From the NCBI RefSeq assembly GCF_050920415.1, contig NZ_CP169309.1: DNA of 64,000 nucleotides; one strand, given 5' to 3'. Both the position numbers and the translations under genes were made by a program. Position 1 is the first letter of the stretch. Every line of letters begins with the position of its first letter. The DNA comes from Escherichia coli (GTDB taxonomy: Bacteria; Pseudomonadota; Gammaproteobacteria; Enterobacterales; Enterobacteriaceae). Positions 19,745 to 62,745 of this stretch are shown piece after piece. The notes under the pieces are model-generated. The model had not been told where the DNA came from, ran no database searches, and was given only the letters and a program-made list of their open reading frames with translations.

Positions 19745-19885
19745 ACAGCACTACCCCGTAGGGCGGATAAGGCGTTCACACCGCATCCGGCAACCTATGC
19801 CTGATGCGACGCTGAAGCGTCTTATCATGCCTACACAGCGCTGCCCCGTAGGCCGGATAAGGCGTTCGCGCCGCATCTGACATAA
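19745..19885. repeat. REP/BIME cluster
   Basis: Repeated GCCGGATAAGGCGTTCACGCCGCATCCGGCA-type palindromic units downstream of fbaB. Confidence 0.85.
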
Positions 19886-49244: not shown

Positions 49245-49340
49245 CGCCGGATGCGGTGCGAGCGCCTTATCCGGCCTGGGGAATGAGCGATTTGTAGGCA
49301 TGATAAGACGCGTTAGCGTCGCATCAGGCAATGGGCAAAC
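49245..49340. repeat. REP/BIME elements
   Basis: GCCGGATGCGGTGCGAGCGCCTTATCCGGCC and TGATAAGACGCGTTAGCGTCGCATCAGGCA palindromic units between alkA and dgcE. Confidence 0.85.
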
Positions 49341-54318: not shown

Positions 54319-56172
54319 ATGAGACGATTTCTGACGACGCTGATGATACTCCTGGTCGTGCTGGTGGCCGGGTTATCTGCGTTAGTGTTGCTGGTGAATC
54401 CGAATGATTTCCGCGACTATATGGTCAAGCAAGTTGCTGCACGTAGCGGTTATCAATTGCAGCTCGACGGGCCACTGCGTTGGCACGTCTGGCCGCAACT
54501 TAGTATCCTCTCCGGGCGAATGTCTCTCACTGCCCAGGGCGCGAGCCAGCCACTGGTTCGCGCAGACAACATGCGTCTGGACGTGGCGCTTTTACCACTG
54601 CTGAGTCATCAACTGAGCGTTAAGCAGGTGATGCTAAAAGGGGCAGTGATCCAACTGACGCCGCAGACGGAAGCGGTACGCAGCGAAGATGCCCCGGTTG
54701 CACCGCGCGACAATACCTTGCCGGATCTGTCAGACGATCGCGGATGGTCGTTTGATATATCCAGTCTTAAGGTGGCGGACAGCGTGCTGGTGTTCCAGCA
54801 TGAAGATGACGAGCAGGTGACAATCCGTAATATCCGCCTGCAAATGGAACAAGATCCCCAACATCGTGGTTCATTTGAGTTCTCCGGGCGGGTTAATCGC
54901 GATCAGCGCGATCTCACGATATCCCTTAACGGTACGGTAGATGCTTCTGATTATCCGCATGATTTAACGGCGGCTATTGAACAAATTAACTGGCAGTTGC
55001 AGGGTGCCGATTTACCAAAACAAGGTATTCAGGGGCAGGGGAGTTTCCAGGCCCAGTGGCAGGAGTCACATAAACGCCTTTCATTTAACCAAATTAGTTT
55101 GACCGCCAATGACAGTACGCTGAGCGGGCAAGCACAGGTCACGCTGACAGAGAAACCGGAATGGCAGCTGAGACTGCAATTCCCGCAACTGAATCTTGAC
55201 AACCTCATCCCGCTTAAAGAAACAGCGAACGGTGAAAACGGTGCCGCGCAGCAGGGGCAGAGCCAATCCACGTTGCCGCGCCCGGTCATTTCTTCGCGTA
55301 TTGATGAACCGGCCTATCAGGGATTGCAAGGCTTTACGGCTGATATTTTGTTGCAGGCCAGTAACGTGCGCTGGCGCGGAATGAATTTTACAGACGTTGC
55401 CACGCAAATGACCAACAAGTCGGGTTTGCTGGAAATTACTCAACTGCAGGGCAAGCTTAACGGTGGACAGGTTTCGCTGCCGGGCACGCTGGACGCGACA
55501 TCAATAAGTCCGCGGATAATCTTCCAGCCACGGCTGGAAAACGTTGAGATTGGCACCATTCTGAAGGCGTTTAACTATCCGATTTCGTTGACCGGAAAGA
55601 TGTCACTTGCGGGTGATTTCTCCGGTGCTGACATAGATGCCGACGCATTCCGCAACAACTGGCAAGGGCAGGCGCATGTTGAGATGACCGACACACGCAT
55701 GGAAGGGATGAACTTCCAGCAGATGATTCAGCAAGCGGTAGAGCGTAATGGTGGTGATGTGAAGGCCGCTGAAAACTTCGATAACGTGACGCGTCTTGAC
55801 CGCTTTACCACCGATTTGACGTTGAAGGATGGCGTCGTGACGTTAAACGACATGCAAGGTCAATCGCCTGTGCTGGCGCTGACAGGGGAAGGCATGTTGA
55901 ATTTGGCAGATCAAACCTGCGACACCCAGTTTGATATTCGGGTCGTGGGTGGCTGGAACGGGGAAAGCAAACTGATTGATTTCCTCAAAGAAACGCCAGT
56001 ACCGCTGCGGGTTTATGGCAACTGGCAGCAACTTAATTACAGCCTGCAAGTGGACCAGCTGCTACGCAAACATCTACAGGACGAAGCGAAACGTCGCCTG
56101 AATGACTGGGCCGAGCGGAATAAAGATTCCCGCAATGGCAAAGATGTGAAGAAGTTGCTGGAGAAGATGTAA
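54319..56172 (+). CDS. asmA: Outer-membrane assembly protein AsmA
   Basis: 617 aa; N-terminal membrane anchor then a long soluble domain. Confidence 0.92.
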   Translation: MRRFLTTLMILLVVLVAGLSALVLLVNPNDFRDYMVKQVAARSGYQLQLDGPLRWHVWPQLSILSGRMSLTAQGASQPLVRADNMRLDVALLPLLSHQLSVKQVMLKGAVIQLTPQTEAVRSEDAPVAPRDNTLPDLSDDRGWSFDISSLKVADSVLVFQHEDDEQVTIRNIRLQMEQDPQHRGSFEFSGRVNRDQRDLTISLNGTVDASDYPHDLTAAIEQINWQLQGADLPKQGIQGQGSFQAQWQESHKRLSFNQISLTANDSTLSGQAQVTLTEKPEWQLRLQFPQLNLDNLIPLKETANGENGAAQQGQSQSTLPRPVISSRIDEPAYQGLQGFTADILLQASNVRWRGMNFTDVATQMTNKSGLLEITQLQGKLNGGQVSLPGTLDATSISPRIIFQPRLENVEIGTILKAFNYPISLTGKMSLAGDFSGADIDADAFRNNWQGQAHVEMTDTRMEGMNFQQMIQQAVERNGGDVKAAENFDNVTRLDRFTTDLTLKDGVVTLNDMQGQSPVLALTGEGMLNLADQTCDTQFDIRVVGGWNGESKLIDFLKETPVPLRVYGNWQQLNYSLQVDQLLRKHLQDEAKRRLNDWAERNKDSRNGKDVKKLLEKM

Positions 56173-56193
56173 GTCATCCAGATGACATATGCT

Positions 56194-56229
56194 GTAGGCC
56201 TGATAAGACGCGTAAGCGTCGCATCAGGC
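56194..56229. repeat. REP palindromic unit (left arm of inverted pair)
   Basis: GTAGGCCTGATAAGACGCGTAAGCGTCGCATCAGGC; exact reverse complement of 56589-56624. Confidence 0.85.
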
Positions 56230-56588
56230 AATCACGTAGATTACTTTCAGCAAAGATGAATCATCTGTATAAGTAAGATACTTCAGCGAGGGTGTTGGTC
56301 CGGCTGTAAATCGCCGAATCGTTTCCTGTAGGCCGGGGCAGCCCACATGGATGTGGGCTGAGGGCGCGTTTTACAGGGATGTTACCTCGCGCCCGTACCC
56401 GATAGCCGAAAGGAATAAGATGAGGGGACCGCGCTAGCGGCGATTTACCGCCGGGAGCCCGGGTTGCCAGGGTGGTGGCGATTGAGCCACCCTGGCACGT
56501 TCACCGGCTTGAGCGTTCCAAAGTAGCGAGGAACATAAAGTGAACGGAACAGCCTCTAATGTCACATACTCTCCCGGTTGAATGAAAC
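56230..56588. other. GC-rich structured ~360 bp insert between inverted REP units, function unknown
   Basis: Long perfect hairpins CAGCCCACAT-GG-ATGTGGGCTG (about 56337-56358) and GCCAGGGTGG-N11-CCACCCTGGC (about 56467-56497); no convincing ORF. Confidence 0.4.
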
Positions 56589-56624
56589 GCCTGATGCGAC
56601 GCTTACGCGTCTTATCAGGCCTAC
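56589..56624. repeat. REP palindromic unit (right arm of inverted pair)
   Basis: GCCTGATGCGACGCTTACGCGTCTTATCAGGCCTAC. Confidence 0.85.
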
Positions 56625-56630
56625 ATGCCA

Positions 56631-58214
56631 TCACACCTCATACTCCATTTCGCCATCCTTATGCAGCGGAATAATCTGCACCTTCTGCACGCGATGGCTT
56701 TCCACCTGCAATGTTTTAAGCAAATAATCCCCCACCTGAACTTCTTCGCCAGGTTTTGGAATGCGCTGTAAATATTCCATCAGCAGCCCGGCAATGGTGT
56801 GATATTCACGTTTCTCATCCAGCGGCAGTGGTACATATTGCACCAGATCTTCCAGCGGCATATGACCATTCGCTGTCCAGGAACCGTCGGCATTTTTCTG
56901 AATATCATGACGGGCATCGATCTCTTCCACTTCGTTTGGCAAGTTACCAGCAATGGTTTCAGTGACGTCACTTAATGTCACAATCCCTTCCACCGAGCCA
57001 AACTCATCCACCACAAAAGCAAAGTGCGTGCGGGCATTACGGAACTGCTCCAGGGCAGGTAACAACGGTAAAGTTTCCGGGAACACCAGCGGCTGGCGAA
57101 TCAACACCCGCAGGTTGAGCGGTTCGCCACGCAGTGACTGTTGTAGCAGGTCGATAACGTGAACAACACCGAGCAAATCTTCTGCGTCATCGCCGTCGGT
57201 AACGACCAGACGCGTATGCTGATTTCGCTCCAGCAACTGGCGGATTTCTTCTTCCGGCGCGTTGAGATCGATATGCTCAATATCGTGGCGCGACGTCATA
57301 ATGCTGCTGACGGTACGCTGGTTAAGATTAAGTACCCGCTCAATCATCCGCCGTTCCTGCGGATTAAAGATCTGCTGGTTACCATAATCCACCAGCATGG
57401 ACGCGGTTTCGGCATCCAGTTCCGCATCTTCTTTTTGCCCGCTTAACAAGCGCATTACCGCTTCGGTAGTTCGCTGGCGCAGCGTCTGGTTAGCGGAGAG
57501 AAAACGTCGCCGGTTAAAGATGGCAAGTTGATTGAGCGCCTCGATCATTACCGAGAAACCAATGGCAGCATACAGATAGCCTTTCGGAATGACGAAGCCG
57601 AAACCTTCCGCCACCAGGCTAAAGCCAATCATCAACAGGAAACTTAGGCAGAGTATGACGATGGTCGGGTGACTGTTAACAAATTGCGTTAACGGCTTGC
57701 TGGCCATCAGCATCAGGCTGATCGCGATAACCACGGCGGCCATCATGACCAGTAAATGGTCGACCATCCCGACGGCAGTAATCACCGAGTCAAGTGAGAA
57801 GATGGCGTCCAGCACCACAATTTGCGTCACCACGCCCCAGAACTTCGCACCTTTGCGTTGCGTGGGGTTATTGCTGTCTTTCCCCTCCAGCCGTTCGTTC
57901 AACTCCATCGTGGCTTTGAACAGCAGGAAGAAACCACCAAACAGCATGATTAAGTCGCGGGCGCTAAAGGTAAACGAGCGGAAGCTGAACAGTGGTTGGG
58001 TCAGGGTGACCAGCCAGGAGATTGACGCCAGCAGTAACAGGCGCATTAACATTGCCAGCAGCAGCCCGGTAATCCGTGCGCGGTCGCGCTGCTTCGGCGG
58101 TAGTTTTTCGGCGAGGATGGCAATAAAGACCAGGTTATCAATGCCGAGGACCAGTTCGATCACAATCAGCGTGATTAACCCGGCCCAGATAGACGGATCG
58201 GCAATCCATTCCAT
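56631..58214 (-). CDS. yegH: TerC-CBS-CorC family membrane protein YegH
   Basis: ORF 56631..58280; start set at [13 protein letters not shown] giving 527 aa; TerC-like membrane N-terminus plus CBS pair and CorC/HlyC C-terminus. Confidence 0.88.
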
Positions 58215-62639: not shown

Positions 62640-62745
62640 CGGATGCGATGCTGACGCATCTTATCCGACCTACGTTCACGCCGCATCAGGCAAGCAAACC
62701 CGCTCCGTAGGCCGGATAAGGCGTTCACGCCGCATCCGGCAACAG
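62640..62745. repeat. REP/BIME elements
   Basis: Palindromic units CGGATGCGATGCTGACGCATCTTATCCG and GCCGGATAAGGCGTTCACGCCGCATCCGGCA after wzc. Confidence 0.85.

Follow-up and report, generated by a model that had tools for sequence, protein, structure and literature searches.

A probable TRIP1/RRS family member between inverted REP units in the asmA-yegH spacer of Escherichia coli

The TRIP1 repeats of Escherichia coli are GC-rich intergenic sequences with a double-Y fold, which lie near the 3′ ends of genes and can be found in either orientation at the same locus. The copies in the lysO-aqpZ, putP-efeU and yohP-dusC spacers are known as TRIP1a, b and c (Rudd 1999; Li 2024, PMC10888264), and 99% of TRIP1 copies are found in five loci (a-e), asmA-yegH and proX-ygaY not being among them (Li 2024, PMC10888264). 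Two of these repeats, TRIP1a and TRIP1c, have been described as "replication risk sequences" (RRS), under the names RRS-lysO and RRS-dusC (Pham 2023, 2024; PMC10287960, PMC10592627). The RRS of K-12 trigger post-replication gaps on the lagging strand, and the deletion of both of them requires a compensating amplification (Pham et al., PMC10287960, PMC10592627). Here, the spacer between asmA and yegH is described within a stretch of 64,000 nucleotides of the E. coli contig NZ_CP169309.1 (the window), where an element that is very probably a diverged member of this family is enclosed by two repetitive extragenic palindromic (REP) units.

Another described system to which the element bears a likeness is the TwoAYGGAY RNA (RF01731), which is known from gut metagenomes, Clostridiales and some gamma-proteobacteria (Weinberg 2010) and was proposed as a binder of CsrA (Gardner & Eldai 2015, PMC4333381). 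The CsrA dimer bridges sites that are 10-63 nt apart (review PMC7652899). The comparison with both systems leads to two ways in which the element may act, as DNA or as RNA, which are weighed below.

Family identity of the element

A megablast search with the sequence between the REP units (56230-56588) gave matches in 5418 of the 5426 complete E. coli genomes, at a median of three places per genome. Such a search had been proposed together with the original prediction as a check of copy number and of polymorphism; the sequence is multi-copy, and the site is polymorphic, with five allele classes. The best match in K-12 is TRIP1a in the lysO-aqpZ spacer (85.7% identity over 189 bp), the centre of the element (56308-56492) being ~86% identical, and the other family matches lie at putP-efeU, yohP-dusC and proX-ygaY. 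Domain 1 (Table 1) is where the family is best conserved, and it is 87-90% identical to TRIP1a, TRIP1c and the RRS of Kluyvera, with 90% for TRIP1a. The terminal hairpin shares 66% with the same copies and 97% with the proX-ygaY copy. The 3′ region is 39-41% identical to TRIP1a, TRIP1c and the Kluyvera RRS and is common to the proX-ygaY and Citrobacter copies. On the basis of these alignments, the core can be assigned with high confidence to a diverged member of the TRIP1/RRS family. The copies at asmA-yegH and proX-ygaY and those of Citrobacter are shown to be a subfamily which keeps domain 1, has a different 3′ half and is without the G-quadruplex (G4) of the RRS.

The asmA-yegH/proX-ygaY subfamily has been missed by the published TRIP1 surveys. 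The alignment of the asmA-yegH copy to TRIP1a extends over ~185-189 of 266 bp, or ~70%, and a query coverage above 80% was the criterion of the survey (Li 2024, PMC10888264), therefore the copy was not catalogued as TRIP1. Its GC content over 56300-56555 is 60.5% and its fold is stable and supported by covariation, which were together counted as agreeing with the GC-rich composition (62-65%) and the stable double-Y fold of TRIP1. It differs from TRIP1 in its position outside the loci a-e, in its other 3′ half and in the flanking REP units. With the RRS it shares the homologous domain 1, the position of the terminal G-rich hairpin and, in the window allele, the G-rich strand as the lagging-strand template; it differs from them in that it has no G4 motif and is not conserved in E. 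coli. The RRS form a near-identical, symmetric inverted pair ~650 kb from dif, whereas the asmA-yegH element has no partner on the other replichore. Its K-12 equivalent (2,139,486-2,139,758) lies 89 kb from TRIP1c/RRS-dusC (2,229,122), on the same side of the terminus. The sister copy between proX and a gene for a ygaY-like major facilitator superfamily protein (locus L006, 2001-2290) is present in 544 of the 5426 genomes, and in other strains a bacterial interspersed mosaic element (BIME) of four REP units and ~198 nt replaces it (locus L041, 503-700).

On the + strand asmA covers 54319-56172, and yegH runs towards it on the − strand with its stop at 56631. The spacer of this convergent pair spans 56173-56630, exactly the 458 bp of the original prediction; the K-12 spacer, put there at ~160 bp, is actually 273 bp. 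Just two open reading frames (ORFs) overlap the spacer, of 40 and 66 amino acids, both on the minus strand. Alleles differ by indels within these short frames and therefore no coding is indicated, in keeping with the earlier statement that no credible ORF is present. A scan of 55900-56900 for promoters and terminators found no site inside the spacer and no terminator between asmA and the element; the single promoter-like match lies within yegH, and the count is not above that of shuffled sequences. A JUMPstart RNA (RF01707, 57-58 bits) lies between yegH and wza (L002 356-394 and L024 10919-10956), as expected for the leader of the colanic-acid operon.

Table 1. Features of the asmA-yegH spacer in the window, with positions counted from its first letter.
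Feature	Position	Strand	Description
Left REP, asmA side	56193-56229	+	Found in all allele types of the asmA-yegH locus
5′ tail of the element (tail B)	56230-56299	+	Homologue of the yegH-side tail in the opposite-orientation allele, ~60-65% identity
Domain 1	56300-56454	+	17-nt long-range stem 56300-56316/56438-56454 around a Y of two GGA-loop hairpins, and a small hairpin 56429-56440
Hairpin 1	56338-56360	+	9-10 bp stem, loop ACAUGGAUGU at 56345-56354
Hairpin 2	56362-56394	+	Stem GGGCGCG/CGCGCCC, loop UUACAGGGAUGU at 56371-56382
Terminal G-rich hairpin	56465-56497	+	Reads CCAGGGTGGTGG...CCACCCTGG; positional homologue of the RRS G4 hairpin; sub-threshold G4 potential
3′ stem region	56498-56555	+	CGTTCAC (56498-56504) pairs with GTGAACG (56540-56546); subfamily-specific
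3′ tail (tail A)	56556-56588	+	In every asmA-yegH allele a REP comes next, with unchanged relative orientation
Right REP, yegH side	56589-56625	+	Exact reverse complement of the left REP; in the window-type allele only

Conserved fold and GGA-loop hairpins

The long perfect hairpins noticed in the original prediction are present, with arms of 10 nt (56339-56348/56351-56360) and of 11 nt (56465-56475/56487-56497). Folded as RNA, the core (56284-56555, 272 nt) reaches -128.7 kcal/mol on the + strand and -115.1 kcal/mol on the − strand, with a z-score of -5.0 on either strand against dinucleotide shuffles, and the same core folded as DNA has a z-score of -7.1. When the REP units are paired, the whole spacer reaches -231.5 kcal/mol (z -12.4), which was equalled by none of the shuffles. 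The comparison of fold energy with shuffled controls, which had been suggested at the outset, thus shows more structure than expected by chance.

The element's secondary structure is conserved and supported by covariation. An RNAalifold consensus of 66 pairs was built on 26 different copies in Escherichia, Citrobacter and Kluyvera, and standard pairing is found in 98.5% of its cells. Compensatory changes occur in 25 of the 66 pairs, compared with 14.5 ± 1.9 in shuffles (none of 500 reaching 25) and 1-4 in slid controls, in a set of related sequences where the pattern that retrieved the loci L011-L036 contained hairpin 2 but neither hairpin 1 nor the other helices. The covariation score is 0.259, against 0.101 in the shuffles and 0.027-0.051 in the slid controls. 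The pattern used to scan the genome collection, GCGTNTTACANGGANGTTACCTCGC, was overly strict: it returned 26 stretches, reached just Escherichia, Citrobacter, Kluyvera, one metagenome-assembled genome and one member of the Alteromonadaceae, not Salmonella or Klebsiella, and forces the invariance of hairpin 2 in L011-L036. Where only one side of a stem has changed on the G-rich strand, the result is of the G:U type in 12 pairs and of the A:C type in five (one-sided binomial p = 0.07), which is mild evidence that the G-rich strand would be the one that folds. An insertion of 78 nt is found at the same position in E. whittamii (L024 8604-8693) and in one Citrobacter copy (L014 1121-1213) and forms two extra hairpins. 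The loop of the first is CGGGA or AGGGA in both copies alike; that of the second is AGGGAU in E. whittamii and AGUGAU in Citrobacter. This module scores 28-31 bits against the Aggregatibacter small RNA 22 (RF02902), below the threshold of 39.8.

The two most conserved hairpins of the family carry ACANGGAUGU loops. The stem of hairpin 1 varies between copies (CCCAC/GUGGG, CGCGC/GCGCG, CCCGC/GCGGG) and its loop is always A(U/G)GGAU, while the loop of hairpin 2 reads UUACA(G/A)GGA(U/C/G)GU across the family. The window loops, ACATGGATGT (56345-56354) and TTACAGGGATGT (56371-56382), are 28 nt apart and are the only matches to ACANGGATGT on both strands of the 64 kb, where 0.44 would be expected. 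The loop of hairpin 2 agrees with the CsrA consensus RUACARGGAUGU from SELEX at 11 of 12 positions, and its ACA, GGA and GU are all present. The two predicted sites have the sequence features of candidate CsrA sites, namely GGA loops, the RUACARGGAUGU consensus and a spacing within 10-63 nt. As in CsrB and CsrC, the GGA lies in hairpin loops and in an ACA...GGA...GU context; these two RNAs differ in having ~18-22 sites, compared with two here and four in the long variants, and the sites here are candidates.

At the curated thresholds, Rfam finds nothing in the spacer, so that the covariance-model check suggested with the original prediction gave no family, and the only sub-threshold matches are naRNA4, at the REP units, and TwoAYGGAY. 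The latter scores 29.1 bits for the window (a partial match), 31.5 for the YJ6 allele described below and 30.6 for TRIP1a (both full length), and the gathering threshold is 43. The likeness to TwoAYGGAY is that an outer stem, which covaries, surrounds two neighbouring hairpins whose loops have the form A-Y/G-GGA-Y, loop 1, AUGGAU, fitting AYGGAY. The differences are the score below gathering, the loop 2 AGGGAU, which has G for Y, and the extra 3′ domain of the window element. A sequence from the Alteromonadaceae bacterium BrNp21-10 (L020 9852-9996), a gamma-proteobacterium outside the enterics, scores 53.1 bits for TwoAYGGAY and shares an exact 25-nt string of hairpin 2 with the E. coli TRIP1/RRS. 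In Kluyvera cryocrescens, a separate two-hairpin unit (L021 2578-2641, − strand) scores 41.9 bits (threshold 43); it is on the strand opposite to an RRS copy, at a distance of ~120 nt. It is an unlikely proposal, drawn from the sequences, that the conserved core of TRIP1/RRS would be a TwoAYGGAY-class pair of CsrA-consensus hairpins and not the G-quadruplex, and that the family would act partly through recognition of the loops. A literature search found no paper linking TRIP1/RRS to CsrA or to TwoAYGGAY, and another, on small RNAs at asmA or yegH, gave nothing relevant.

Allele classes and the REP-bounded arrangement

Five allele types occupy the asmA-yegH locus. The simplest has a single REP and a spacer of 67 bp, as in CFT073. 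The common full-length type, exemplified by YJ6, has one REP and the element with its G-rich strand in the sense of yegH, in a spacer of 451 bp; matches of at least 95% identity to it are found in 4299 genomes, at least 80% coverage in just 1425 of them. Probably the majority of genomes carry the YJ6 orientation with an internal deletion that removes domain 1, leaving spacers of 273 bp in K-12 and 292 bp in GPEC856. The K-12 deletion removed 178 bp between 8-bp repeats of ATCGGGTA. The deletion in GPEC856 (L040 451-742) is independent, with 159 bp removed at a 4-bp junction repeat, and both GGA hairpins are lost. The K-12 remnant (L005 1487-1759, or MG1655 2,139,486-2,139,758) is just the 3′ half, with the terminal hairpin, the tail and the REP. 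In O157:H7 a RelE/ParE-helix-turn-helix toxin-antitoxin pair takes the place of the element, and in strain F8798 (L039 4203-4821) the toxin and antitoxin genes replace both the REP and the TRIP1-like element. The window form, with a spacer of 458 bp and with CV839-06, UMNF18 and ETEC strains among its carriers, is a rare allele carried by about 1% of E. coli: 41 genomes were counted with a 601-bp query and 53 with the core and tails.

Compared with the common allele, the element and its adjacent REP are inverted in the window, and the cores are 97.8% identical, with tails at ~60-65%. Perfect inverted REPs enclose the segment because the element lies in this inverted position together with one REP, while a second REP remains beside asmA. 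The two REP arms (56193-56229 and 56589-56625) are 37 nt each and 100% complementary, one nucleotide longer than first described, and enclose 359 nt; as direct repeats they are 81% identical. They match naRNA4/REP325 below the Rfam threshold. The perfect inverted repeat is less special than it appears, because copies of the same REP are present elsewhere in the window, with 92-95% identity to the bounding arms at 49293-49332 and 19798-19835; further REPs of the same type lie at 62642-62742. With a BIME the arrangement shares two canonical REPs in inverted orientation and the presence of other REP copies in the window. The linkers of a BIME are short, whereas here a TRIP1-like element of 359 bp takes the place of the linker, and the common allele and CFT073 have one REP only.

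The arrangement might be read as a miniature inverted-repeat transposable element (MITE) or a REPIN-like unit, with the REPs as terminal inverted repeats, mobilised as a whole, for instance by a REP-associated tyrosine transposase (RAYT). The window differs from CFT073 by an exact gain of 391 bp (359 bp and one inverted REP) directly after ...GCATCAGGC, and a BIME is the alternative occupant at proX-ygaY, both of which would agree with such a unit. However, the gain shows no direct target duplication, and a deletion between the two REPs, possible because they are 81% identical as direct repeats, explains the same difference and is equally possible as an insertion. The REP-core-REP unit is found at no second locus among the 5426 genomes, since the 41-53 carriers (at least 80% coverage) all have it at asmA-yegH. 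No REP was found within ~400-500 nt of at least 30 other family copies; REPs accompany the element at asmA-yegH only, where in every allele a REP adjoins the 3′ tail and keeps its relative orientation, and they are therefore a property of the site and not of the element. The MITE with REP ends was rejected on these grounds and is highly improbable. Of the original prediction of a miniature inverted-repeat element in a BIME, the multiple copies, the polymorphism of presence, absence and orientation and the clean 391-bp gain stand, and the REPs are not its ends; an insertion into a BIME is fair as a description of the geometry, but wrong for the nature of the element, which belongs to the known TRIP1/RRS family. 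Still less probable is an invertible, phase-variable segment that recombines between the 37-bp inverted REPs. The perfect repeats and the occurrence of both orientations at the locus would fit it; against it, a synthetic flipped junction has no full-length match above 84.8% in the 5426 genomes, those matches being the old opposite-orientation allele, the common allele has one intact REP only, and no recombinase is found among the flanking genes of annotated relatives (dcd, asmA, yegH, wza). Even taken together, a switch and a MITE remain very improbable.

The dimorphism of orientation is old and fixed, and is not an active switch. Since the tails differ by ~35-40%, the two orientations are ancient and do not interconvert. 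The common-type arrangement is found in E. albertii and in strain MOD1-EC7003, and the window type in E. whittamii, in strain E1V33 and in a divergent E. coli; as both arrangements exist in other Escherichia species, the dimorphism is either old or was exchanged between species. A comparable dimorphism is seen at yohP-dusC, where nearly the whole spacer with RRS-dusC/TRIP1c is inverted between two allele classes (L037 1567-1938 and L009 1929-2315), with 89% identity between the elements and with tails that are unrelated or have diverged strongly. For this locus, 2952 forward and 2789 reverse orientations were counted (Li 2024, PMC10888264), hence many E. coli would carry the G4 on the leading-strand template. 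In E. coli 06-00048, a frameshifted element of the insertion sequence (IS) family IS110 interrupts the TRIP1c/RRS-dusC copy at yohP-dusC (L010 2001-2073, 3457-3635) precisely in the loop of its second GGA hairpin. The junction reads ...TTTTACAGGGAT|IS|ATGTTACCTCGC, with AT at either side, and the IS110-family element may target the repeat in a programmed way.

Action as DNA or RNA and its meaning for the family

The best explanation of the locus overall, for which the chances appear about even, is an inverted TRIP1/RRS paralogue between REP units with an RRS-like action as DNA. Like its RRS relatives, the element would act when the duplex is unwound and the G-rich strand could fold into a double-Y hairpin array, which the paired REPs could clamp further. 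In the window allele the folded strand would be the lagging-strand template, so that the array would impede lagging-strand synthesis and a transient gap may remain. The G-rich + strand is taken as this template because the + strand has a positive GC skew and the locus, with asmA as a leading-strand gene, is syntenic with the left replichore of K-12. The activity of the canonical RRS at the DNA level is experimental, and some blocking of polymerases is seen with the complementary strand as well (Pham 2023, 2024; Kusi-Appauh 2026). By analogy with them, a DNA-structure effect can be put forward tentatively as the mechanism, and it would be weak and dispensable at asmA-yegH.

Several observations weigh against an RRS-like DNA action. 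The G4 string of the RRS, GGGGGTGCAGGGGGCGGCGG, to which the RRS papers attribute the activity, is confined to the canonical copies and was not found in the window, and the G4Hunter maximum reaches 1.04 in the window element, 1.08 in the proX copy and 1.84-1.92 in the RRS. In K-12, ssGap-seq gave two prominent peaks only, at lysO and dusC (Pham 2023), therefore partial relatives do not obviously act; asmA, yegH and putP are not mentioned in the main text of that paper. The orientation towards replication is not conserved: the G-rich strand is on the lagging-strand template in the window allele only, and on the leading-strand template in the common asmA-yegH allele and in about half of TRIP1c. 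The asmA-yegH copy has been lost repeatedly, by the independent deletions of 178 and 159 bp, in the empty sites and by the toxin-antitoxin replacement. Finally, a pure obstacle model does not account for loops that stay invariant next to varying stems.

The latter observation belongs to the alternative in which the element acts as RNA. Transcription reading through from asmA, or in the common allele from yegH, would place it in a 3′ untranslated region (UTR), where the two GGA loops would bind one CsrA dimer; such binding would titrate CsrA or alter the stability or the 3′ end of the host mRNA. The loops ACAUGGAUGU and UUACAGGGAUGU fit the CsrA consensus with a spacing inside the dimer range, the two ACANGGATGT matches exceed the expectation for the 64 kb, and the loops stay invariant while the stems covary. 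The TwoAYGGAY matches of 29-31.5 bits agree with this, as does the Alteromonadaceae sequence with the shared 25-nt string, which passes the threshold (53.1 against 43 bits), in a family that was itself proposed as a CsrA binder (PMC4333381). The 78-nt insertion adds two more hairpins in E. whittamii and Citrobacter, the stem changes lean towards G:U (12 against 5, p = 0.07), and no terminator separates asmA from the element. On the other side, the Rfam match is under the gathering score, the strand with the GGA loops is antisense to the gene closest by at many loci (TRIP1a, TRIP1b, Kluyvera, Citrobacter), and the stems are very stable, a property that according to SELEX data disfavours CsrA binding. 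Tables of CsrA cross-linking and immunoprecipitation with sequencing (CLIP-seq; Potts 2017) give asmA, dusC and ybjE as unbound and have no entry at the coordinates of TRIP1a or of the asmA-yegH spacer, which is a weak negative because K-12 has no domain 1 at asmA-yegH, the tables are gene-based and their coordinate format is uncertain. Action as a CsrA-binding RNA is hence considered unlikely, and the unannotated structured RNA that had been suggested is possible but unproven: the fold is conserved and supported by covariation, but no Rfam family is reached at gathering score and the spacer contains no promoter or terminator.

Only slightly less doubtful is that the element is a passenger with no function, left from the decay of a once mobile or recombination-spread structured element and kept only by linkage in a recombination hot spot near the colanic-acid/O-antigen region. 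The locus is hypervariable, with empty 67-bp sites, two independent deletions of domain 1, the toxin-antitoxin cassette of O157:H7 and, in one strain, an inserted IS1. A full-length copy is kept in just ~27% of genomes, the sister copy at proX-ygaY is found in 544 of 5426 with a BIME in others, the flanking genes are merely 95-97% identical to K-12, and the mosaic similarities of the domains suggest exchange between copies. A passenger would not be expected to keep its stems by compensatory changes and its loops invariant across Escherichia, Citrobacter and Kluyvera, nor a core 97.8% identical between allele classes with tails at only ~60-65%, and canonical members of the family are conditionally essential in K-12. 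Since the orientation to genes and to replication is inconsistent across the family, it cannot discriminate between function at the RNA and at the DNA level. For the asmA-yegH element, the guess to be preferred is an RRS-like effect of DNA structure, and a CsrA-binding RNA would be the alternative of interest.

The RRS have recently been reported as conditionally essential elements of chromosome structure, and attention so far has been on the G-quadruplex. The TRIP1/RRS family is larger than catalogued, with asmA-yegH and proX-ygaY added as a G4-less subfamily, and at fixed sites between genes its members are gained, lost or reversed in orientation. For annotation, this means that a strain-variable, seemingly odd spacer is ordinary biology of the family and not a new mobile element. 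In MG1655, the amplification between insH7 and insH8 (2,102,912-2,288,976) rescues double-RRS deletions (Pham 2024). The truncated K-12 relative at asmA-yegH lies inside this interval and, as a corollary of recognition through the loops, could contribute to the rescue. If such recognition were true, the loops would be bound by CsrA in a transcript, here in the asmA 3′ UTR, or by some other protein in the unwound G-rich strand of the DNA, and the conditionally essential phenotype of the RRS may depend on the two-hairpin module. What is kept across subfamilies and genera is this covarying module with its invariant CsrA-consensus loops, which bears on how the RRS act.

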